A DNA stretch of 64,000 bases from an uncultured Candidatus Rokubacteria bacterium (GTDB taxonomy: Bacteria > Methylomirabilota > Methylomirabilia > Rokubacteriales > CSP1-6): NCBI GenBank assembly GCA_963771355.1, contig CAVYTA010000006.1, positions 2,304,001 to 2,368,000 of the forward strand, in the 5' to 3' direction. Below the pieces are notes generated by a model that saw nothing but the letters and a program-made list of their open reading frames with translations, did no database searches and was not told where the DNA came from. Positions within the stretch are counted from its first letter, which is position 1, and each line of letters begins with the position of its first letter. Below, piece after piece: positions 11,370 through 25,521 of the stretch. The translations under genes and the position numbers were made by a program.

Positions 11370-11640
11370 CAGCGATCCCACGATGCCGCGGTGGCGCGAA
11401 GCGGACGGGCGCGTCAAGCTCTCGGCGGCGTGGCTCATCGAACACGCGGGACTGCGCCGCGGAGACGGGCCGGGTCCCGTCGCACTGTCCACGCGCCACC
11501 GCCTCGCCATCGTCTGCCGCGAGGGATCGCGTGCGGCCGACGTCACCGCTTTCGCGCGCGAGATCCGCGCGCGGGTTGAGGCTCGCTTCGGTATCCGCCT
11601 CGTCCCCGAGCCCGTCTTCTGGGGCGCGCCGCCGATGTAG
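11370..11640 (+). pseudogene. murB: C-terminal fragment of UDP-N-acetylmuramate dehydrogenase
   Basis: VKLSAAWLIEHAG...LSTRHRLAIV...VEARFGIRLVPEPVF is the MurB C-terminal domain; no FAD-binding N-terminal part lies upstream. Confidence 0.82.
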
Positions 11641-11649
11641 AATGCCTGG

Positions 11650-12708
11650 ATGAAGCGTCGGTATCGGGCCGTGCTCGTCGGCTGCGGGGCGCGCGGACAG
11701 AGCCATGCGCTTGGCCTTCTCGCGAATCGGGACCGGTTCGAGCTGGTGGCGCTCTGCGATCGGGACGCCGCGCGCCTCGGCGCGCTCGCGCACACGCTTG
11801 GCATCACGCGCGTCTACTCCGACGCCGAGGCCATGCTCGCCGCCGAGCGCCCCGACCTGCTCTGTTTCGCCACCCCGCCGGCGGTGCGGGTCGAGCTCGT
11901 CGAGCTCGGGGTGCGGCATGGCGTTCGTGCGATCGCGCTCGAGAAGCCGCTCGCGCTCTCGCTGGCCGACGCCCGGCGCATTGTCGCGCTCTGCGCGGGC
12001 GGCATACAGGCCGTCGTCTGCCATCAGCTCAAGCACGCCGGCCATTGGCGGCGGATCAAGCAGATCGTGGAGGAGGGCGGCATCGGGGAGATCCGGTCCT
12101 TCCACGCTACTGCCCGTCCGTCGATGCTGCGGGTGGGCACCCATCTCGTCGATGCCATGCTGTGGCTCGGCGGGGGCATGCAAGCGACGTCGGTCCACGG
12201 CCAGGCTCAGGGGCGCCTAGCTTATCTCGAGGACCATCCTTGTCCTGATCACGCGGCGGGCGTCGTCGAATTCGCGAGCGGGGTCCGCGGTTTCCTCGAG
12301 ATCGGCTCTCTGGCGCCTCGTCACCTCGACGAGGGCGACTTTTGGGGCGATGTGGCTGTCACGGTCCGGGGCGCCCGGGGCCATGCACGCGTGGTGCTGG
12401 GTGGCGGGTGGGAGGCGGTCACGCGGTGGTCCGGAGGCCGGGTTGAAACCGGGCCCGCCGATGTCTCGCCGGGCGAGCCCGAGCATATGCGCCTTCTGGC
12501 CGACTGGCTGGACGATCCCCGGCGGGTGCATCCGTCAAATCTCAAGACGAGCTACCACGGCTTCGAGATCCTGATGGGCCTCGCGCTGTCGAGTCTCGAG
12601 CGCCGCCGCGTCGATCTACCCATCGCCGGGACTCCTGAAGCCATCCTGGAGCGACTCAGGGATGCGCTTCCAGAAGACGAGCGTCCGGCCGCCCGGGCTT
12701 CATCGTGA
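11650..12708 (+). CDS. Gfo/Idh/MocA family NAD(P)-dependent oxidoreductase
   Basis: VLVGCGARG Rossmann motif, FATPP, LEKPLA, VGTHLVD. Confidence 0.9.
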   Translation: MKRRYRAVLVGCGARGQSHALGLLANRDRFELVALCDRDAARLGALAHTLGITRVYSDAEAMLAAERPDLLCFATPPAVRVELVELGVRHGVRAIALEKPLALSLADARRIVALCAGGIQAVVCHQLKHAGHWRRIKQIVEEGGIGEIRSFHATARPSMLRVGTHLVDAMLWLGGGMQATSVHGQAQGRLAYLEDHPCPDHAAGVVEFASGVRGFLEIGSLAPRHLDEGDFWGDVAVTVRGARGHARVVLGGGWEAVTRWSGGRVETGPADVSPGEPEHMRLLADWLDDPRRVHPSNLKTSYHGFEILMGLALSSLERRRVDLPIAGTPEAILERLRDALPEDERPAARASS

Positions 12709-13469
12709 TCGCGCTCCGAGCGGTCACCAAGCGCTTTGGTGGTCGCCTCGCGCTCGACGGCGTGTCGATCGAGGTGCGTGCCGGCGCCGTCCATGTGCTG
12801 CTGGGCTCGAGTGGCTCGGGCAAATCGACGGTCCTGCGACTCATCCTCGGTCTCGTGGAGCCGGACGGGGGCGAAGTGCTGGTGGACGGGACGCCCGTGA
12901 CCGAGTCCACGCGGGCCGGGCTGGTGAGACGCATGGGCTACGTGGTGCAAGACGGCGGCCTCTACCCGCATCTGACCGCGTACCAGAACGTGGCGCTTCC
13001 GGCGGAAGCGCACGGCTGGCCGTCGGCGCAGACTCGCGCGCGCGCGGGCGAGCTGGGGGCGATGGTGGGACTCGACGGAGACAGCCTGCGCGCCTACCCC
13101 CGCGAGCTCAGCGGGGGACAGCGCCAGCGTGTCGGACTCATGCGGGCGCTGGTGCTCGACCCGCCCGTGCTTCTCCTCGACGAGCCGCTCGGATCGCTCG
13201 ACCCGATCGTCCGGGCCGAGCTCCAGGGCCAGCTCGGCCGGCTCTTTGCGGCGCTCGGCAAGACCGTCGTGATGGTGACCCACGATATCCGCGAGGCGGC
13301 TCTCCTCGGCAGCACCATCACCCTCATGACCGCCGGCCGCATCGTCCAGCAGGGGGCGTTCGCCGACTTGGTCGAGCGGCCCACCTCGCCGTTCGTGACT
13401 CAGTTCCTGACCGCTCAAACGCTCGCTCCCGGCCAAACACTCGCTCCCGGGGATTCAGGGGCCCGATAA
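12705..13469 (+). CDS. ABC transporter ATP-binding protein, osmoprotectant/quaternary amine (OpuA/EgtV-like)
   Basis: Walker A GSSGSGKS, MGYVVQDGGLYPHLT, LSGGQRQR, LLLDEP. Confidence 0.92.
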   Translation: MIALRAVTKRFGGRLALDGVSIEVRAGAVHVLLGSSGSGKSTVLRLILGLVEPDGGEVLVDGTPVTESTRAGLVRRMGYVVQDGGLYPHLTAYQNVALPAEAHGWPSAQTRARAGELGAMVGLDGDSLRAYPRELSGGQRQRVGLMRALVLDPPVLLLDEPLGSLDPIVRAELQGQLGRLFAALGKTVVMVTHDIREAALLGSTITLMTAGRIVQQGAFADLVERPTSPFVTQFLTAQTLAPGQTLAPGDSGAR

Positions 13470-13472
13470 CAC

Positions 13473-14966
13473 ATGCGGCCGCTCGTGGCGGGTGCCGCGC
13501 TCGTGGCTCTGCTGCTGCACGGATTCGGCGTCAGCGCCGCGCAGGACGGAGTCATCCGTGTCGGGTCGAAGTCCTTCACGGAAAGCTACCTCCTCGCGGA
13601 AATCGCGGCACAGGTTATCGAGCAGGCTGGAGAGGCCCGCGTCGAACGGCGGCTCGGCCTCGGCGGCACCGGTATCACCTACCGGGCCATCGCCTCGGGC
13701 GCGATCGACCTCTATCCCGAATACACGGGCACGCTCACCCGCGTCATCCTGAAGGACCCGGCGCTTCGCATACCCGAGGCGATCCGCGCGCGCCTCCGGC
13801 CATCGGGGCTGACGATGAGCGAGCCCCTCGGCTTCAACAACACGTATGCGCTCGCGGTCCGCGTCGACACCGCCGAGCGTTTGGACCTAAAGAGCATCGG
13901 TGACCTCGTGCGTCACCAAGAGCTCACCGCGGCGTTCAGCTCAGGTTTTCTGGAGCGCGAGGACGGCTGGCCGGGACTCAGGCGCCACTACGGCCTGTCG
14001 CTGGCTCGCGTACGGGTGATGGAGCACGCCCTGACGTACCGGGCGCTCGCCGGCGGCGAGGTGGATGTCATGGACGTCTTCTCGACGGACGGGCAGCTCG
14101 AGCGCCTGCGACTTCGGATTCTCCGGGACGATCGGGGCTTCTTCCCGGACTACTCGGCGGTGCTCCTGGCCCGCCGGGAAATGGCCGAGCGATTCCCGCG
14201 CACGTGGGCGCGGCTCCGTCAAGCCCTCGAGGGATCACTCGACGACCGGCGCATGGCTGAGCTCAACGCGATGGTGGACCTGGACGGCAAGAGCATCCCC
14301 GAAGTGGCCGCCGCCGTCGCGGGCGCGGCACTGCCGGACGCGCAGGCCAGACCGGGCATCGTGACGGAGATCTACGCCCTCACGCTCGACCACCTGGTCC
14401 TCGTCCTGGTCTCCCTGGCCGCCGCCATCGTCCTGGGCGTGCCGTTGGGCATCGCCGCGGCACGGTTCCGGCGGATCGGTCAGGTCGAGCTCGGCGCCAT
14501 CGGCATGCTGCAGACGGTCCCGGCCCTGGCGCTCCTCGTGTTCATGATCCCGCTCTTCGGGATCGGCAAAGGTCCCGCCCTCGTCGCCCTCTCCCTGTAC
14601 GCGCTCCTCCCCATCGTGCGCAGCACCTACGCCGGGATCATCGGGATCGATCGCCATCTCCTGGAGATCGCCTTTGTGCTCGGGCTCGGCCGCCTCGCGC
14701 GCCTGGTCCGCATCGAGCTCCCGCTCGCCTCCATCAGTGTCATGGCGGGGATCAAGACCTCCGCCGTCATGACGGTGGGTACGGCCACGCTCGCCGCGTT
14801 CATCGGCGGCGGCGGCTATGGAGCGCTGATCGTGCGGGGCTTGGCGCTGGATGACACCGCGACGATCCTGGCCGGGGCCGCGCCCGCCGCGGCGATGGCG
14901 GTGGCGTTTCACGTGGTCTTCGAGTTTCTGGACCGTCTCGCGATCCCGCGCGGCCTCCGCCGCTAA
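13473..14966 (+). CDS. Fused substrate-binding/permease subunit of a glycine-betaine-type ABC transporter (EgtU/OpuC-like)
   Basis: GSKSFTESY, YPEYTGT, NNTYAL, FFPDY binding domain followed by a permease with QTVPALAL and an EAA-like loop. Confidence 0.9.
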   Translation: MRPLVAGAALVALLLHGFGVSAAQDGVIRVGSKSFTESYLLAEIAAQVIEQAGEARVERRLGLGGTGITYRAIASGAIDLYPEYTGTLTRVILKDPALRIPEAIRARLRPSGLTMSEPLGFNNTYALAVRVDTAERLDLKSIGDLVRHQELTAAFSSGFLEREDGWPGLRRHYGLSLARVRVMEHALTYRALAGGEVDVMDVFSTDGQLERLRLRILRDDRGFFPDYSAVLLARREMAERFPRTWARLRQALEGSLDDRRMAELNAMVDLDGKSIPEVAAAVAGAALPDAQARPGIVTEIYALTLDHLVLVLVSLAAAIVLGVPLGIAAARFRRIGQVELGAIGMLQTVPALALLVFMIPLFGIGKGPALVALSLYALLPIVRSTYAGIIGIDRHLLEIAFVLGLGRLARLVRIELPLASISVMAGIKTSAVMTVGTATLAAFIGGGGYGALIVRGLALDDTATILAGAAPAAAMAVAFHVVFEFLDRLAIPRGLRR

Positions 14967-15787
14967 CCTCCGGAGTCGAGGAGGGCGTTGAGGCGGCTGC
15001 ACGCCGCGATGACTTCGCGGTCCCTGCCCGGGAACCACGCCCGGATCCATTGCGGGCGCTCAAAGAAGGCCAGCGGAGGCCGTGCGCGGCGCCTGATACC
15101 CACCCGGAGCACGAGGCCGCTGGCATTGATGAAGCTCACGTCCTCCAGCATGCGTCCCACCCCGGCCACGCCGACGGTGACCGGGCAGAGCTTCGCGACG
15201 GCAGCGATCGAATCCGAGACGCCGCGAAGGCAGAAACCGTGGGTCCGGGGCAGGACCACGGGCGGCAGGGCCTCGAGGACGCTTCGCAGGGTGAGACCCG
15301 AGAATACGGTGTCGTCCACCACGGCGAGCGACTCGGAGGCAGGGAAGCCTTTGAGCCCGCCGGCAAGCTGGGCGGCGAGTGTGGCCGGCACGGTACTGAC
15401 GAGATGATAGTCTCCACGCCCGTCCTCCTCTCGAGTAAGCCCGAGGCGGTGAACGCGCGGGAACCAGCCGGTCTTCGCGTGGAGCGCCTGGGCCGCGCGC
15501 TCGCCGGCTCGGCCGATGCCGAGGGCAAGATCGAATGGGGCATGCCGACCCTGGGCGATGACACGCTCGACCTGCTCGGCCAGCGTGAGGACCACGACCC
15601 TCTCGGGGTCTCTTTTCAGGAGGGCGAAGAGGGAGCGGGTGAGGGCGGCGGCGGGGGAGGCGGGACCGAGACGCTCCGCCACTTCGTCGCTCAGATCGTC
15701 GTGGACGTACAGCAGTCGGGGCGTGGGCTGCGCGTAGGCCCCGCGGTCCGGCTCGTCCACGCCGCGGGACGTGTCAGCCGGCGGCAT
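14963..15787 (-). CDS. Type I phosphoribosyltransferase-like protein of unknown substrate
   Basis: PRPP-loop-like AVVDDTVFSGLT and LGIGRAG; start overlaps the end of the upstream selenoprotein gene. Confidence 0.65.
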   Translation of the reverse strand: MPPADTSRGVDEPDRGAYAQPTPRLLYVHDDLSDEVAERLGPASPAAALTRSLFALLKRDPERVVVLTLAEQVERVIAQGRHAPFDLALGIGRAGERAAQALHAKTGWFPRVHRLGLTREEDGRGDYHLVSTVPATLAAQLAGGLKGFPASESLAVVDDTVFSGLTLRSVLEALPPVVLPRTHGFCLRGVSDSIAAVAKLCPVTVGVAGVGRMLEDVSFINASGLVLRVGIRRRARPPLAFFERPQWIRAWFPGRDREVIAACSRLNALLDSGG

Positions 15788-16310
15788 CCGGCTGGGGCCC
15801 ACGATAGACGTAGTCGCCTCGACAGCGCTCCATCATCGCGCGCATGTCCTGGCGCAGCTCCTCGAGCGTCGGCCGTCCGACATACCACCAGCCGTTGTAG
15901 ATCCGATGAATCGTGAGATCAGGCAGGAGCGAGAAGGTGAACGGCAGGGCGAGGAGACCGTGCCGGAATGCCGGCGGCGTCGCCTCGACGATGTCGAGGC
16001 GTGAGATGACGCGCCGCTCGTGATCGCTCAGGAACGTAAAGGTGGCGCCGAGTCCTGCGCGGAACGCCGCCGAGACCTCGGGCGGGTCCGTCGAGACCAC
16101 CGCGAGCTTGCAGTAGTTGACGGCGAGTTCGTCCTGGAGCTCGGTCAGGTGCCGCAACTGGCACCCGCACTTCGGTCACCAGTACCCGCGGTAGAAGCTC
16201 ACGATGAGCGGGAACTCGCCCGCGAGCGCGGAGAGGCGGACCGGCTCGGCTCGATGATCGGGCAGCTCGAGATCCGGGAACTGCTTGCCGACGGCCAGAT
16301 GTGGGTGCAC
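15774..16310 (-). CDS. Selenocysteine-containing redoxin (AhpC/TSA/peroxiredoxin-like), in-frame TGA at 16176-16178
   Basis: RBS AGGAGG plus GTG 16310 gives MHPHLAVGKQFPDLELPDHRAEPVRLSALAGEFPLIVSFYRGYW-TGA-PKCGCQLRHL..., in frame with ORF 15774..16157. The TGA falls at the first Cys position of the CxxC motif. Confidence 0.88.
16148..16165 (-). promoter_or_regulatory. Putative bacterial SECIS hairpin
   Basis: GGTGCC-AGTTGC-GGCACC perfect 6-bp stem beginning 11 nt 3' of the in-frame TGA, with a G/U-containing loop. Confidence 0.65.
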
Positions 16311-16321
16311 GAAATATCCTC

Positions 16322-17296
16322 CTAGCCCGAAGCGGCAACCGCGAGGGCGAAGTAGCTCTCCGAGTCGGTGTGCCAGGTCTCGAGGCGAAGCCCGGCCTCT
16401 TCGAGCATGGCCTGGGCCCCGGCGCGGCTGAACTTGTAGGAACTCTCCGTCCAGATGTTTTCGTCCGGCGAGATTCGAATGGTCAGCTCCAGGCGGCGAA
16501 GATGCACCACCTGCGTCGAGTCGGGGACGAGGTGCATCTCGATGCGGGCCGCAGGCTCGTTGTAGAAGGCGACGTGCCGGAAGGCCGTGGGGCGGAAGTC
16601 GGCGTCCGCGCCGTGGTTGACGACGTTGAGGATGTTCCGGTTGAACTCCCGGGTGACGCCGCTCGCGTCGTTGTATGCGGCTTCGAGCACCGTGACGTCC
16701 TTGACGAGGTCGAGGCCGAGGAGAAAGCGATCCTCCCGGCTACGGAGGAGCGCGCGCACCTGGGAGAGCAGCCGCAGCCTGGCCGGAGGGTCGAGGTTGC
16801 CGATCGTGCTCCCGAGGAAGAGCACGAGGCGGCGGCCGACCGGGGAGGGCACGTGCTCCAGGTGCCGCTCGAAGTCACCCACGAGGGCGCGCACGTCGAG
16901 GAACGGGTAGTCGGAAATGAGGCGGGCCGCGCTGGCTTGCACGGTCAGCTCGTCGACGTCGATCGGAACGTAGCGCAGGCGATCCGGCAGGCCATTCCGG
17001 CCATCGAGGAGCCGGCGGGTCTTCGACGCCGATCCCGGACCGAGCTCTACGATGTCCTGGGGCTGCAGCTCGCGCATGAGCCGTGGCGCGAGCGTGTCGA
17101 GGAGCGCCGCTTCCGTCCGCGTCAGGTAGTACTCGGGAAGCTTGGTGATGTCTTCGAACAGATTGGATCCGATGACATCGTAGAAGTACTTCGAAGGCAG
17201 GGTCTTGGGGCTTGCCGTGAGCCCGCGGCGCACGTCTTCCTCGATCCTTGTGCGCCTGTCGGTTTCGTTCGTATACGCGTACGCGCGATAGCGCAT
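16322..17296 (-). CDS. egtD: L-histidine N-alpha-methyltransferase (hercynine synthase)
   Basis: LPSKYFYD, PEYYLTRTE, ELGPGSASKT, FLGSTIGN, AAYNDASGVT, WTESSYKF. Confidence 0.93.
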   Translation of the reverse strand: MRYRAYAYTNETDRRTRIEEDVRRGLTASPKTLPSKYFYDVIGSNLFEDITKLPEYYLTRTEAALLDTLAPRLMRELQPQDIVELGPGSASKTRRLLDGRNGLPDRLRYVPIDVDELTVQASAARLISDYPFLDVRALVGDFERHLEHVPSPVGRRLVLFLGSTIGNLDPPARLRLLSQVRALLRSREDRFLLGLDLVKDVTVLEAAYNDASGVTREFNRNILNVVNHGADADFRPTAFRHVAFYNEPAARIEMHLVPDSTQVVHLRRLELTIRISPDENIWTESSYKFSRAGAQAMLEEAGLRLETWHTDSESYFALAVAASG

Positions 17297-17488
17297 TATG
17301 GTCGTCGGCCCGAGGCGGGGGGCATGTGGCGACCCCCGCCGCGGACCTTCGAGGGTAGACTGCCTCGGGTCAACTCGCAAGCGTTGCTTGAGATGCGCGA
17401 CTGGGGTCCGGCGCTTTCGGTCGCCGTGGGGCCCATCCCGACGTACACTTCCTGGCAGTGCTCGCTAGGACCATAGGGAGGGTTCTCC

Positions 17489-18820
17489 ATGGCTGAGACG
17501 GTTGGTGAGCGGCTCGCTGGCGTATGGGCGCGCACGGACCGGATCTTCGAGATCCTCGCGCCCGGGGCCTTCCTCGCCCAGCCGATCGCGCTGCGCCACC
17601 CGTTCATCTTCTATGTCGGGCACCTCCCCGCCTTCGCCTGGAACCACGTGTGCGTGGGTGTCCTCGCACGGCCCTCCTTCAACGCCGCGTTCGATGAGCT
17701 CTTCTCCCGCGGCATCGATCCCGATGTGGACGACCCCAGCCACTGCCACGCTCACCCGGAGATCCCGGATCGCTGGCCGACCGTGGCCGAGGTGCTCGCC
17801 TATCGTGATCGCGTCCGGGCCTCGGTGCTCGAATCCGTGGACGCGGTGACGGAGCGGGCCGGGTCGCATCTCATGGCCCGGGATGGGCGCGTCTTCTCGA
17901 TGGTGATCGAGCACGAGCTCATGCACCAGGAGACGCTCCTCTATATGCTCCAGGAGCTCGCTCTCGACCGGAAGGTCCGTCCCGCCTGGCTCCCGCGCGA
18001 TGTGACCGGCCGCGGCCGACCCCCGGCCACGGTGCAGGTGCCCGCGGGGACGGCGACGCTCGGCGCGGCGTTCACCGACCTGGCATTCGGCTGGGACAAT
18101 GAATTCCCCCCGGCTCAGGTCTTCGTGCCGGGTTTCCGCATCGACGAGACGCCGGTGACGAACGGCCAGTTTCTCGCCTTCGTGGACGACGGAGGATACC
18201 GGCGCCGCGAGCTCTGGGCTGCCGATGACTGGGGATGGAACCGTGAGGAGACCCTCGCTCATCCGCGGGTGTGGACGAACCAGGACGGGCGGTGGCTCTA
18301 CCGCGGCCTCTTCGATCTCCTCCCGCTCGAGCGCGTGATGGATTGGCCCGTGTACGTCAGCCTGGCCGAGGCGCGGGCGTATGCGCGCTGGCGTGGTCTG
18401 CGCCTGCCCACGGAGGCGGAGTTCCACCGGGCGGCTTTCGGCGATCCACGGGGACCCGAGCGTGCCTTCCCCTGGGGGGCAGGCGCTCCCGGGGAGCGAC
18501 ACGGCAACTTCGACTTTCGCCACTGGGCGCCGACGCCCGTGGGCACGTACCCCGAGGGCGCGAGCGCGTGGGGTGTCTACGACCTCGTCGGCAATGGGTG
18601 GGAATGGACCGAGACGCCGTTCGCGGGTTTTGCGGGTTTCGAGGCGTGGATCCCCGGATATTCCGGCTACTCAGCCGATTTCTTCGACGGCAAGCACTTT
18701 GTCCTCAAGGGCGGTTCGTGGGCGACCGCCGCGGAGCTTGTACGGCGGAGCTTCCGCAACTGGTTCCAGGCGCACTATTCGTACGTGTTCGCCACGTTTC
18801 GCTGTGTCGAGAGCCCCTGA
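17489..18820 (+). CDS. egtB: Non-heme iron sulfoxide synthase (EgtB/Egt1-like; DinB plus FGE-like domains)
   Basis: FYVGHLPAF, iron-binding HELMHQE (HX3HXE), RLPTEAE, GNGWEWT, YSADFFDG, RRSFRNWFQ. Confidence 0.9.
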   Translation: MAETVGERLAGVWARTDRIFEILAPGAFLAQPIALRHPFIFYVGHLPAFAWNHVCVGVLARPSFNAAFDELFSRGIDPDVDDPSHCHAHPEIPDRWPTVAEVLAYRDRVRASVLESVDAVTERAGSHLMARDGRVFSMVIEHELMHQETLLYMLQELALDRKVRPAWLPRDVTGRGRPPATVQVPAGTATLGAAFTDLAFGWDNEFPPAQVFVPGFRIDETPVTNGQFLAFVDDGGYRRRELWAADDWGWNREETLAHPRVWTNQDGRWLYRGLFDLLPLERVMDWPVYVSLAEARAYARWRGLRLPTEAEFHRAAFGDPRGPERAFPWGAGAPGERHGNFDFRHWAPTPVGTYPEGASAWGVYDLVGNGWEWTETPFAGFAGFEAWIPGYSGYSADFFDGKHFVLKGGSWATAAELVRRSFRNWFQAHYSYVFATFRCVESP

Positions 18821-18991
18821 CGCCGATCGCGCGCGCGAGATCCTGCGTTTCTCTGCGCCCCGGTTCGCTTGGGCTATGACCCCGCAAGGTTGTGCCGGAG
18901 TCCGGGCCCGAATGCAATCGGGCTCGCGCACCTCGGGTGTATCGTGACCGAGGAGGCCGCCGCCGGGGAGCCCGGCACGGCCGGCCACATC

Positions 18992-20653
18992 ATGGCAGAC
19001 CCGTACCTGGGCCGTCGCGACCAGATGTTCCCCCGGCTGACCCCGGCTCAGATCGAACGGATCTCCGCGGTCGGCGAGCGTCGCAGCGTCCGCTCGGGCG
19101 AGGTGCTGTTCGAGCTCGGGGAGCAAAACACCCGCTTCTTCGTGGTCATCGAGGGCGCCGTCGAGATCGTGCGCCCGGTCGACGGTCGTGAACAGCCGAT
19201 CGTGGTGCACGGCCCCGGCGAATTCACGGGCGAGATCAACATGCTATCCGCGCGCCGCGCCATCGTCCTCGGGCGGGCTCTCGGCGACGGGTCGATCGTC
19301 GTCGTCGATCGTGAGCATCTGCGCGCGCTCGTGCAGCGAGACTTCGAGCTCAGCGAGATCCTCATGCGTTCCTTCATTCTGCGGAGGGTGGCGCTCATCG
19401 CCCACGGCGACAGCGGCCTGGTCCTCATCGGCTCTCGGCATTCGGCAAACACGCTACAGATCAGAGAGTTCCTGACTCGAAACGCGCAGCCGTTCACATA
19501 CCAGGACGTGGAGAGCGACCCGGACGTGCAGGCGCTCCTGGATCGGTTCCAGGTCGGGGTCGACGACGTGCCCGTGGTCGTGTGCGAGGGGGGCCAGGTG
19601 CTGAGGAACCCCTCGATCGAGGCACTGGCCTCGGGGCTCGGCCTGAGCCCCGAGTTCGACGCCGGGGTGACGAGGGACGTGGTCATCGTTGGCGCGGGAC
19701 CGGCGGGTCTCGCGGCCGCGGTCTACGCCGCATCGGAGGGGCTCGACGTGCTGGTGCTCGAGACCACCGCGCCCGGCGGCCAGGCCGGCTCGAGCTCACG
19801 CATCGAGAACTATCTCGGATTCCCCACCGGCATCTCCGGCCAGGACCTGGCTGGGCGTGCGCTCATGCAGACCGAGAAGTTCGGCGCGGAGGTGGCCATC
19901 GCCCGGGGGGCCGTCGGTCTCGACTGCACGTCGAAGCCCTACGCGGTCCGCCTGGCGACCGGCGAAGTCGTGCGTACGAGGACCGTCGTCATCGCCAGCG
20001 GCGCCAGGTACCGGAAGCCCGCCCTCTCGGAGCTCTCGCGTTTCGAGGGAGCGGGCATCATGTACAGCGCCACCCACGTCGAAGCGCAGCTCTGCAAGGA
20101 GGAGGAGATCGCCATCGTGGGGGGCGGCAATTCCGCCGGACAGGCGGCCGTCTTTCTCTCGCAGAGCTCGGCCCAGGTGAACGTGCTCGTGCGAGGCCCG
20201 GGGCTCGCGGCGAGCATGTCGCGCTACCTCATCCAGCGAATCGAAGACAGCTCGAACGTGGTGCTGCGTGCGCGCACGCAGATCGACGCGCTCGAGGGAA
20301 CCGACCGCCTCGAGGGGATCCGCTGGCGCCATCTCGACACCGGACAATCGCAGACGCGCCCGATCCGTCACCTGTTCCTGATGACCGGCGCCGACCCGAA
20401 CACCGCCTGGCTCGGCGGATGCGTGGTGCTTGACGACAAGAACTTCGTCAAGACCGGCGCCGAGCTCCACCCCGATGAGCTCGAAGAGGCGGGATGGCCT
20501 CTCGCCCGCCGGCCCGATCTGCTGGAGACGAGCATGCCGGGTGTCTTCGCGGTCGGCGATGCACGGTCGGGCAGCGTCAAGCGTGTGGCGTCGGCGGTGG
20601 GCGAGGGCTCGGTGTGCGTCCAGCTCATCCACCGGGCGCTCCGTGAGCTGTAG
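18992..20653 (+). CDS. Cyclic-nucleotide-binding domain fused to a thioredoxin-reductase-like FAD oxidoreductase
   Basis: N-terminal cNMP domain (GEFTGEINML), GAGPAG, SSRIENYLGFP, GGGNSAGQ, FAVGD, KRVASAVGEG. Confidence 0.9.
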   Translation: MADPYLGRRDQMFPRLTPAQIERISAVGERRSVRSGEVLFELGEQNTRFFVVIEGAVEIVRPVDGREQPIVVHGPGEFTGEINMLSARRAIVLGRALGDGSIVVVDREHLRALVQRDFELSEILMRSFILRRVALIAHGDSGLVLIGSRHSANTLQIREFLTRNAQPFTYQDVESDPDVQALLDRFQVGVDDVPVVVCEGGQVLRNPSIEALASGLGLSPEFDAGVTRDVVIVGAGPAGLAAAVYAASEGLDVLVLETTAPGGQAGSSSRIENYLGFPTGISGQDLAGRALMQTEKFGAEVAIARGAVGLDCTSKPYAVRLATGEVVRTRTVVIASGARYRKPALSELSRFEGAGIMYSATHVEAQLCKEEEIAIVGGGNSAGQAAVFLSQSSAQVNVLVRGPGLAASMSRYLIQRIEDSSNVVLRARTQIDALEGTDRLEGIRWRHLDTGQSQTRPIRHLFLMTGADPNTAWLGGCVVLDDKNFVKTGAELHPDELEEAGWPLARRPDLLETSMPGVFAVGDARSGSVKRVASAVGEGSVCVQLIHRALREL

Positions 20654-23697: not shown

Positions 23698-24892
23698 ATG
23701 CCCGGGCCTCTGCAGGGCGTCCGTATCGTCGACGCCACCACCGTCGTGCTGGGTCCCCTCGCCACGCAGATGCTGGGCGACCTAGGCGCCGACATCGTCA
23801 AGGTCGAGCCGCCCGAGGGCGACACCACACGCAAGCTCGGCCCCACGCGCAACCCCGACATGGCCGCGTTCTACCTCGCATGCAACCGGAACAAGCGAAG
23901 CATCGTGCTGGACCTCAAGCAGCGCGGCCGGCCACGCGGCGCTGATCCGCCTGATCACGGGCGCGGACGTCTTCGTCCACAACTTCCGGCCCCAGGCGGC
24001 GGCGCGGCTCAAGGTCGAGTACGAGCGGGTGCGCGCGGTCAATCCCGGCATCGTCTACTGCGCGACGTACGGCTTCCGCGCCGCCGGCCCCTACGGCAAC
24101 AAGCCCGTCTACGACGACATCATCCAGGCGGCGTCCGGCCTCGCGTCCCTCCAGGCCCCGCTGGTCGGCGATCCGCGCTACCTCCCTACCATCGTGGCCG
24201 ACAAGACCAGCTCGATGGCGGTGGCCCATGCCCTCCTCGCCGCGCTCTACCACAAGGCGCGCACCGGCGAGGGCCAGGCCATCGAGGTGCCGATGTTCGA
24301 GACGGTGGTCGCGTGGATGATGGTCGAGCATCTCTACGGCGAGACGTTCCGGCCCGCCCTCGACACGCCCGGCTACAAACGCGTGCTCAACCGCTGGCGT
24401 CGCCCCTTCCCCACCAAGGATGGTTACCTCGCCATCATTCCCTACACCGACACGCACTGGCAGGCATTCTTCCGCGGCGCGGGCCGCGAGGACCTCCTCG
24501 CCGACCCGCGTTTCCAAACCCTGGCCTCGCGGCTCACCCACATCGAGCTCCTCTACGAGGAGCTGGGAAAGATCGCCGCCACCCGCACCAACGCGGAGTG
24601 GCTGACGCTGCTCGACGCCGCCAACGTGCCCGCCACCGTCGTCAACACGCTGGACTCGATCCTCACCGATCCGCAGCTCGAGGCCACCGGGTTCTGGAAG
24701 ACCATCGAGCACCCTAGCGAGGGCCTGCTCCGCACCCCGGACATCCCTGCGACGTACAGCCGGACGCCCGGCGAGATCCGCCGCCATCAGCCGCGGCTCG
24801 GCGAGCACAGCGTGGAGATCCTGAAGGAAGCCGGGATGTCCGACGAGGAGATCCGCGCGATGCTCGCCGCCGGGGCGACCGCCCAGCCCTAG
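23698..24892 (+). CDS. CaiB/BaiF family III CoA transferase (frameshift near 23925)
   Basis: LGDLGADIVKVEPPEGD, NRNKRSIVLDLK, then HNFRP, YDDIIQA, PRLGEHS in the next frame. Confidence 0.9.
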
Positions 24893-24908: not shown

Positions 24909-25521
24909 TCACACGACGCCGAGGCCGTGTGCGGTGAGGCCGGCGCGCACGCCTTCCACTCCGCCCACGCGATACGCCGAGAGCCCGGCCTCACGGGCCC
25001 CGGCGACATACGTCGCGTCGTCGTCGAAATAGAGGATGGCGGCGGGCGTGACCTCCAGTCGTGCGGCCAGCCGGCGGAAGGCCTCCGGCTCAGGTTTGCT
25101 GCGCGCCAAGCTCGGCCGAGAAGATCGCCCGCGGGCCGAAGATCTCCGCGGCCACCGGAAACACCTCTGCGAGGTGGCGCTTCAGGAGCAGCGGATTGTT
25201 GGTGAACATGCCCACCGGCCGAACGGTGGCGAGTTGCCGCGCGAGCGCGAGCATCGCCAGATCGGGCTCGGTTGCCGCTTTCCTGGCCTCGACCCATTCG
25301 GCCGCGCTGAGGGGATACCCGAGCCGCTCGCCGAACCCCTTCAGGTAGTCGTCGGCCGAGACCAGGCCCCGCTCCGCCTCGTCCTCGAACCCGGAACCCC
25401 AGATCGCGGCGTGAATCGCGTCGGGGCTCCGCCCGCTCCACGACGCCAGCAGGGCCAGCCGGCGCTCCCTCCGGTGGTGCGAGAGGACGCCATCCATGTC
25501 GAACACGACAGCCTCGATCAC
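24909..25521 (-). CDS. HAD family phosphatase (frameshift near 25095)
   Basis: VFDMDGV, FTNN, SKPEPEAF, YFDD, GLSA; two ORFs join. Confidence 0.85.

Follow-up and report, generated by a model that had tools for sequence, protein, structure and literature searches.

A predicted phosphoribosyltransferase-fold companion of EgtD in ergothioneine-type loci of Rokubacteria

Introduction

The described ergothioneine route closest to the one considered here is aerobic and encoded by two genes, for the histidine methyltransferase EgtD and for a sulfoxide synthase of type EgtB-IV (structures 8vih and 8vig; PMC11030361). We analysed a stretch of 64,000 nucleotides from an uncultured Candidatus Rokubacteria bacterium (assembly GCA_963771355.1, contig CAVYTA010000006.1, positions 2,304,001 to 2,368,000; referred to as the window), in which egtD and such a synthase are accompanied by an uncharacterised 274-residue protein with a predicted type I phosphoribosyltransferase (PRTase) fold. 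The genome carrying the window, G000, is 99.8% complete. Its locus resembles the two-gene pathway in its EgtD, in the composite motif of its synthase, in that neither egtA nor egtC was found in the genome, and in its unlinked lyase. It differs from that pathway in adding the conserved PRTase-fold gene, a convergent betaine importer and an optional selenocysteine (Sec) redoxin, and among its relatives EgtB-II or SenA-branch enzymes take the place of the synthase.

Two further systems invite comparison. With the selenoneine sen cluster (SenA, SenB, SenC) the window shares the synthase superfamily, the EgtD partner, a sugar-transferring neighbour and a selD gene in the genome, and some relatives of the window carry a synthase that scores as SenA; in contrast, the window's own synthase fails both the SenA motif and the SenA cut-off, the locus is devoid of senB and senC, and the neighbour is predicted to have a PRTase rather than a GT-B fold. 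Clusters in which a non-heme iron sulfoxide synthase (NHISS) is joined by an ATP-grasp enzyme (actinothioneine, thioglutine; PMC13674229) likewise combine the synthase with a tailoring enzyme and borrow their lyase, whereas in the window the candidate tailoring gene is PRTase-like and EgtD is kept in the cluster. Apart from a 5-thiohistidine acetylase, no non-canonical enzymes modifying these scaffolds were known before the ATP-grasp enzymes, and PRTases are absent from the co-occurrence table of the same paper (PMC13674229, 2026).

On the side of the companion protein, type I PRTases (HGXPRT 5bqp, 1vdm, uracil PRTase, PyrR) share its core fold and the loops that bind phosphoribosyl pyrophosphate (PRPP), from which it is set apart by an identity of 9-20%, about 90 extra residues with a W247/W251/F252 cluster, and a DDT-x-[FY]-S-G-L-T loop. 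A PRTase-like fold acting on a non-nucleobase acceptor is found in CriT/CrpP of Bcs3, where capsule synthesis pairs a PRPP-dependent ribofuranosyltransferase with a phosphatase of the haloacid dehalogenase (HAD) type (PMC10299916). Distant homologs of the window protein also stand beside HAD and family 4 glycosyltransferase (GT4) genes, but no sequence or structure match to CriT appeared among the matches listed, and the egt-linked loci are without a phosphatase. The pairing of a PRTase-like gene with egtD is not described in the literature searched, which included the supplement of PMC13674229 and the accessible parts of PMC13547098, PMC10903977 and 10.1101/2025.07.28.667264, with most subscription papers, and bioRxiv supplements, outside its scope. 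Nor did a pathway with this gene set turn up there, in agreement with an earlier sequence-only reading of the window that knew of none.

Results

A PRTase-like gene accompanies egtD across the family

Open reading frame lists and family scans recovered, in place, every gene that the sequence-only reading had named. The features of the locus that bear on the argument are the following:

16322..17296, minus strand: EgtD, histidine N-alpha-trimethyltransferase, 324 residues from the ATG at 17296 (TIGR03438; EgtD structures in the PDB)
15774..16310, minus strand: Prx-like (AhpC/TSA) selenoprotein with the motif W-U45-P-K-C, an optional member (PF00578; TGA in orthologs)
16149..16164, minus strand: likely upper stem-loop of a bacterial selenocysteine insertion sequence (SECIS; synonymous positions fixed in 30 orthologs)
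14963..15787, minus strand: uncharacterised 274-residue protein, predicted type I PRTase fold, core companion of egtD (model, motifs, co-occurrence)
17489..18820, plus strand: non-heme iron sulfoxide synthase, EgtB-IV type, OvoA branch (structure match, motif)
12705..13469, plus strand: ATP-binding cassette (ABC) ATPase of a betaine-type importer (PF00005; best NCBIfam match proV, below cut-off; conserved with the cluster)
13473..14966, plus strand: fused OpuAC binding domain and permease (PF04069 and PF00528)

In the proposed tight operon of egtD, selenoprotein and PRTase-like gene the junctions agree with the sequence-only reading: the egtD stop lies within TAGGAGG, 7 nt ahead of the redoxin GTG at 16310, and the redoxin stop (15774-15776) and the PRTase-like gene with its ATG at 15787 form a 14-nt overlap. 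The stops of the PRTase-like gene and of the permease overlap by 4 nt, and egtD and the synthase diverge from an intergenic region of 192 bp.

On the sequence comparisons below, the new part of the locus is a dedicated companion of EgtD with a predicted PRTase fold. We counted genes across one sample of 129 family genomes, which are kin and incomplete, and found egtD in 57 and the PRTase-like gene in 53 (both in 51, egtD only in 6, PRTase only in 2, neither in 70). Coordinate comparison places the PRTase-like gene next to egtD, on the same contig and on its downstream side, in 50 of the 51 genomes with both, directly in 40 and with the redoxin between them in 10; the sole split case is G116. 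In the six genomes that have egtD but not the PRTase-like gene, EgtD belongs to another clade (39-50% identity), and the PRTase-linked EgtDs fall on one side of a tree branch (43 rows versus 6; Shimodaira-Hasegawa-like approximate likelihood ratio test, SH-aLRT, 98). Distances in the EgtD and PRTase trees correlate (Spearman 0.76, 39 loci), and the pairing has outlasted inversions and changes of synthase across 24 genera. Genome G170 (92% complete) retains the PRTase-like gene and the importer, while no egtD or full-length synthase was found in it. No PRTase-like homologs were found in 73 genomes from other families of the window's phylum, nor in plasmids; one match in G081 (E 6e-4) was dropped when the fetched locus showed no homolog.

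In a comparison of 40 loci (the window and 39 relatives; genes called with our own caller, clusters named from sequences and part of them scanned), egtD is present in 37, the synthase in 34, the importer in 29 and the redoxin in 7, and no cluster of lyase, senB, senC or phosphatase genes recurs among them.

The companion protein has a predicted type I PRTase core

Pfam and NCBIfam scans of the 274-residue protein gave no family, with no model match at E 0.001, and the label PRTase-like, given from the letters alone, is instead backed by a profile and by structure prediction. Built from 36 homologs, the profile matches HPRT (E 3e-4) and PyrR over the PRPP loop, and 17 of these homologs match PF00156 at E<=0.05. 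The AlphaFold2 model (predicted local distance difference test, pLDDT, 92.6) retrieves 50 Foldseek matches at E<=0.001, which among the matches listed are all PRTase-family or hypothetical proteins; purine PRTases are matched with a Foldseek E of 8e-6 and with the best VIA Z (13.9, root-mean-square deviation 3.7). Taken with the motifs, the model predicts a type I PRTase core fold.

The motifs of the PRPP site are intact (G92-R-A-G95, R119-E-E121, D158-D-T-V-F-S-G-L-T166) and are kept down to 20-25% identity. Residues G92, G95, R119, D158, D159, T160, G164, T166, W247, W251 and F252 are conserved in 27-29 of 29 distant rows, those of the PRPP loop (D158/D159/T160/G164/T166) in 28-29. In the ESM Atlas only hypothetical clusters of the same phylum precede PRTase-domain clusters at 0.82-0.90; the clusters are mostly from Methylomirabilota, and the two close homologs with taxon names belong to Candidatus Rokubacteria and Candidatus Methylomirabilis. 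The genome holds 11 other PF00156 matches, so that the protein is an extra PRTase and not the sole one. A search for fusions gave one match among 7993 longer proteins (P0273, the N-terminal half joined to an AAA/TPR regulator), a likely frame or assembly artefact that was not used.

Distant homologs occur beside glycosyltransferases

A representative search yielded 151 matches, down to 20-25% identity. Five distant contexts were recovered, three from genome contigs and two from metagenome contigs. Two of them are Dehalococcoidia contigs of one genome, where one homolog faces an OpuA-type importer and no egtD was found; neither of the two genomes examined with distant homologs yielded egtD or a synthase. 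Three distant homologs lie ahead of GT4 glycosyltransferases, in one case with an intervening HAD phosphatase gene. No further distant homologs were found in 300 more genomes of the phylum of G209 or in 300 of the class of G210. By analogy with capsule synthesis, the pairing of PRTase, HAD and GT4 speaks for an enzyme whose acceptor is not a nucleobase, but also for an acceptor unrelated to ergothioneine.

The modules of the form PRTase-(HAD)-GT4-(GT4), which are possibly ribofuranose-adding (L073:6980-10699, L074, L075), lie on contigs of 35-49% GC, one from a genome of 1.8 Mb in a class that holds very small genomes. In a single family genome, G029, low-GC (about 55%) GT4 and GT2-like genes lie upstream of egtD, redoxin and PRTase (L032:9456-11490), and this GT4 is 45% identical to the one beside the distant homolog in L073.

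An ergothioneine core with interchangeable synthases

EgtD passes TIGR03438 (340.1 bits, cut-off 290.9) and aligns over its full length to EgtD structures of the PDB (E 1e-76). The synthase stays under all three NCBIfam cut-offs (OvoA 281, EgtB 263, SenA 242); its nearest structure is EgtB-IV 8vih (E 2e-63). The EgtB-IV subtype couples cysteine to hercynine and carries the composite motif RxYH--DxHxHYxNWFx (PMC11030361), which the window synthase fits with R36, Y42, H45, D, H142, H146, Y391 and N-W-F, positions mapped by our own alignment rather than that of the authors of that paper. SenA membership is not supported: NF041186 gives 242 bits against a cut-off of 420, and the motif xNEH--HRHxHYYN(F/Y)(F/Y)R is absent.

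Scans found no egtA, egtC, egtE, senB or selD inside the window, as the sequence-only reading had said. Genome-wide, egtA (PF04107) has no match, egtC none above cut-off (best 21 bits), and the best EgtE-like gene reaches 158.6 of the 400 bits required (C4:231857), so that none of these three members of the mycobacterial egtABCDE set is above cut-off. The lack of egtA and egtC is consistent with a cysteine-using EgtB-IV-type synthase. At C5:384858 a PatB/MalY lyase scores above the cut-off of its family; an unclustered lyase is normal here, because egtE adjoins only 6.2% of such synthases and lyases are borrowed from elsewhere (PMC13674229). Judged from these sequence matches, the core of the locus is with high probability an ordinary ergothioneine synthesis by EgtD and a cysteine-using EgtB-IV-type enzyme. 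About 6 kb from the EgtE-like pyridoxal phosphate enzyme (C4:231812-233014), the genome's selD (C4:224135-226309) is fused to an FAD-oxidoreductase-like N-terminal domain.

Across the relatives, the synthase slot varies. The 35 partner synthase rows comprise 14 of EgtB-IV type, 13 of EgtB-II type and 8 of a SenA/OvsA branch (one a fragment); the 33 long rows fall into three fully supported tree groups, and the type shifts three times on the EgtD tree (39 rows). The third type is nearest to OvsA and has Glu at the position of Asn63 of SenA (EPPIWEMGH; reference residue from PMC11237966); the one member scanned passes the SenA cut-off (467 versus 420 bits). The synthase subtype varies while EgtD and the PRTase-like gene stay, which argues that the constant shared by these loci is the histidine-betaine and not the sulfur donor. 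Three interchangeable subtypes in one slot, including an uncharacterised SenA/OvsA-branch variant, amount to a natural experiment on sulfur versus selenium donors.

SenA/OvsA-branch synthases stand in an operon with egtD and the PRTase-like gene, with no senB nearby, in L051:9745-11064 (G030), L052, L053, L057, L059, L062, L063, L121 and L122. SenA-branch synthases without a PRTase-like gene occur in G083, G062 and G092; in L116 (G083) and L118 (G062) they are of SenA type (NPLxWEIGH) and lie beside the different EgtD clade, without PRTase or senB, the L116 synthase scoring 516 against the SenA cut-off of 420. In the window's genome senB and senC are not clustered with the synthase, and the best TIGR04348 match is elsewhere, on contig C6: a SenB-related GT4 (C6:1264724-1265758, L077; TIGR04348 105.5/300 bits, NF038229 339/400, best PDB match SenB), found in 112 of the 129 family genomes and followed by methyltransferase and ROK kinase genes downstream.

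The redoxin is a selenoprotein and an optional member

The hidden selenoprotein of the sequence-only reading proved real. With the TGA at codon 45 read as Sec, the protein matches PF00578 over residues 7-131 (73 bits), and the GC content at third codon positions is coding-like on both sides of it (0.86 and 0.85). Redoxin orthologs occur in 35 of the 129 genomes; among the best 30 of 38 redoxin matches, which were fetched, the TGA is at the same site in 30 of 30. A SECIS-like hairpin begins 11 nt after the UGA; its folding energy is unremarkable (z -0.93), and its synonymous sites are fixed, with a third-base G in 30/30 and the Arg codon AGG in 16/30 versus 4/385 other Arg codons. It pairs in one register in 19 of the 30 orthologs and in a shifted register in 11. 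The genes sought elsewhere in the genome were found for Sec, with selA, selB, selD (on contig C4) and tRNA-Sec present, and not for egtE, whose score is given above.

With an in-frame UGA, a downstream hairpin and Sec machinery in the genome, the sequence evidence identifies the redoxin as a genuine member of the Prx-like UxxC thiol:disulfide oxidoreductases, a listed selenoprotein family (PMC13188914) with which it shares domain, UxxC motif and hairpin without essential difference; no link of these proteins to ergothioneine is described in the accessible part of that paper. Its place at the locus is loose: 31 of the 35 redoxin genomes carry egtD, the redoxin was not found in 26 of the 57 egtD genomes, and only 11 of the 30 fetched orthologs adjoin the PRTase-like gene, the other 19 lying among unrelated, varying genes. 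Conservation beside egt genes, suggested for both neighbours of egtD, thus holds for the PRTase-like gene and fails for the redoxin, which from these counts looks like an optional extra. As selA is present in 110 of the 129 genomes, Sec is routine in the lineage, and the redoxin therefore says nothing about a selenium metabolite.

Two more W-U-P-x-C redoxin paralogs are found in the genome (C6:327815, C7:781465). Its selA (C7:112931-114392) shows an apparent 5' frameshift, the profile match starting from position 67 and the N-terminal part lying in another frame; this is possibly an assembly error, and it bears on whether the strain makes selenoproteins.

The importer is of betaine type

The importer clade occurs in 49 of the 129 genomes, 44 of which also carry the PRTase-like gene (44 of the 53 that have it). 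The OpuAC domain, compared also with lower-affinity ergothioneine importers of the H. pylori type, scores alike against EgtUC, ProX and 8dp6 (136-143 bits). High-affinity binding by SpEgtU depends on G244, the F293/Y337 switch and E375, and related binders without these residues can still import ergothioneine (PMC9732360). The window's importer, like its clade, is without these determinants, having F, Y/F and G there as in ProX (numbering mapped by us through alignments to SpEgtUC variants). From its sequence, the cargo is likely a quaternary amine, possibly ergothioneine or hercynine.

Discussion

A soluble protein of 274 residues whose gene accompanies egtD in about 40% of the genomes of a family known from soil and rhizosphere data is a candidate for the maker of a new ergothioneine derivative, or for a new regulator of the synthesis. 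In the pathway that we propose, EgtD, by its family membership, would trimethylate histidine to hercynine; the EgtB-IV-type enzyme, by its motif match, would couple cysteine to hercynine C2; and one of the candidate unlinked C-S lyases would free ergothioneine sulfenic acid, the product of such a lyase (PMC4493562). The Sec redoxin, where present, might plausibly reduce this sulfenic acid or oxidised ergothioneine as an optional step. With PRPP, the PRTase-like protein would then ribosylate the betaine, on its imidazole nitrogen or on the sulfur of the thione; the outcome would be a congener resembling a nucleotide, or a trapping of imported betaine, and the substrate is a guess. The ABC importer would take up or recapture the betaine.

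We tentatively place first, ahead of three rivals, the reading in which the PRTase-like protein transfers ribose-5-phosphate from PRPP to ergothioneine or hercynine; fold and motifs of the model are compatible with this, and the way in which the gene tracks egtD while the synthase switches favours action on the shared histidine-betaine. Further points in its favour are G170, where the importer is kept together with the PRTase-like gene, the Dehalococcoidia homolog that lies opposite an importer of OpuA type, and the modules that resemble the ribofuranosyltransferase and phosphatase pair of capsule synthesis. Somewhat more speculative is the wider form, in which many genomes of the family would encode the first PRTase acting on a thio- or seleno-imidazole, producing ergothioneine or hercynine ribotide and, in the SenA-branch relatives, a selenium analogue.

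Several observations weigh against ribosylation of the betaine. The structural match is partial (template modelling scores 0.3-0.38, 166 of 274 residues aligned), no substrate-defining residue was identified in the protein, and Phe/Tyr in the PRPP loop presumably replaces the catalytic Asp of purine PRTases, in the manner of PyrR. The linkage to egtD has one origin, and the 50 genomes are therefore not independent. In genome G012 the PRTase-like gene stands by itself, neither egtD nor an importer nor a full-length synthase having been found there, and in G210, where no egtD was found, the distant homologs lie beside glycosyltransferases, so that the family needs no histidine-betaine. No phosphatase or other tailoring gene recurs in the cluster in the 40 loci, the importer has ProX-like residues in place of the SpEgtU determinants, and no report of ribosylated ergothioneine was found in the literature searched.

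The first of two rivals, which we hold to be unlikely, makes no new metabolite: the protein would be a PyrR-like sensor of PRPP or nucleotides, or a partner of EgtD that tunes synthesis to the supply of histidine or PRPP. It fits the tracking of EgtD rather than of the synthase, the PyrR proteins among the profile and structure matches, and the aromatic residue at loop position 162, which we take to be a PyrR feature; but the gene lies downstream of egtD and not in a leader, its distant homologs beside HAD and glycosyltransferase genes look like enzymes, and G170 and G012 have kept it although no egtD was found in them.

No better placed is the second, in which the acceptor is a glycan, osmolyte or nucleobase, the gene has come to lie near egtD through history or shared stress regulation, and the locus makes only ordinary ergothioneine. 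The single origin of the linkage, the PRTase-(HAD)-GT4 modules without egt genes, the module-like GT4 upstream of egtD in G029 and the orphan copy in G012 all suit it. An unrelated gene would not be expected from the record of gain and loss, which is almost perfectly joint with egtD (only 2 of 53 copies are without it), from a pair that persists across 24 genera despite inversions and exchanged synthases, or from its being carried along in the apparent horizontal transfer.

Least probable by some distance is a SenB analogue that makes a thio- or seleno-ribose donor to be coupled to hercynine without need of a lyase, with the Sec redoxin as reductant of the selenenic or sulfenic compound that results: neither a lyase nor senB recurs among the 40 loci, selD is in the genome, and the PRTase-like gene accompanies a SenA/OvsA-branch synthase in 10 of 56 loci, one passing the SenA cut-off, but the window synthase has the EgtB-IV cysteine motif and fails that cut-off, most partner synthases (27 of 35) belong to types that use cysteine, SenA-branch synthases exist without the PRTase-like gene, a SenB-related glycosyltransferase is encoded elsewhere in most family genomes, a thiosugar sulfoxide underwent no spontaneous elimination with SenA (10.1101/2022.04.13.486033), and a donor-making enzyme would be expected to follow the synthase whereas this one follows EgtD. 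The selenium pathway that the sequence-only reading had put forward for this genome is thereby disfavoured, the redoxin too lying usually elsewhere.

History of the window copy and neighbouring genes

The remaining features around the locus are:

11372..11640, plus strand: foreign 3' murB fragment at the left end of the putatively acquired block 11372-18809 (identity to the murB of G031)
11650..12708, plus strand: Gfo/Idh/MocA oxidoreductase (gfo), a passenger (PF01408; 4/40 loci)
18944..20653, plus strand: cyclic nucleotide monophosphate (cNMP)-binding and TrxB-like flavoprotein, outside the conserved unit (PF00027 and PF07992; 2/40 loci)

Positions 11372-18809 are 93% identical in DNA over 7482 bp to G031, a genome of another genus, and the murB fragment at the edge is 92% identical in amino acids to the murB of G031 and 68% to the genome's own intact murB. 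In two genomes of the window's genus the left flank matches at 81% and the same site is occupied by a cluster of 67-71% identity whose synthase is of EgtB-II type. On these comparisons, the simplest reading is that the window copy appears to be an in-place replacement by recent horizontal transfer, in which gfo came along as a passenger; the cNMP-reductase lies beyond the block. A chimeric assembly is a less likely alternative, the left edge being spanned by one DNA contig, from run X2, with no more than 35 letters.

The genes of the nine-kb cluster are thus all present, but its unity does not hold: gfo and the cNMP-reductase were rejected as pathway members on their low frequency. As reductase of the redoxin the latter was rejected too, lying outside the block shared with G031 and being without CxxC; it reads YSATHVEAQLC where we take the CxxC to be expected from the TrxB consensus, and with 196 bits it is below the TIGR01292 cut-off of 343 for TrxB.

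Most of the window is present in soil and rhizosphere sequencing runs, and three metatranscriptomes contain RNA contigs that span portions of the locus but are silent on strand, level and co-transcription. Elsewhere in the window a CoA-transferase-like gene (23698-24892) and a HAD-like gene (24909-25521) are each split over two frames, consistent with indels, and identical tblastn matches (C5:2000-2353 and C7:811654-812007; C1:12487-13278 and C7:665430-666221) suggest duplicated contig segments in the genome.

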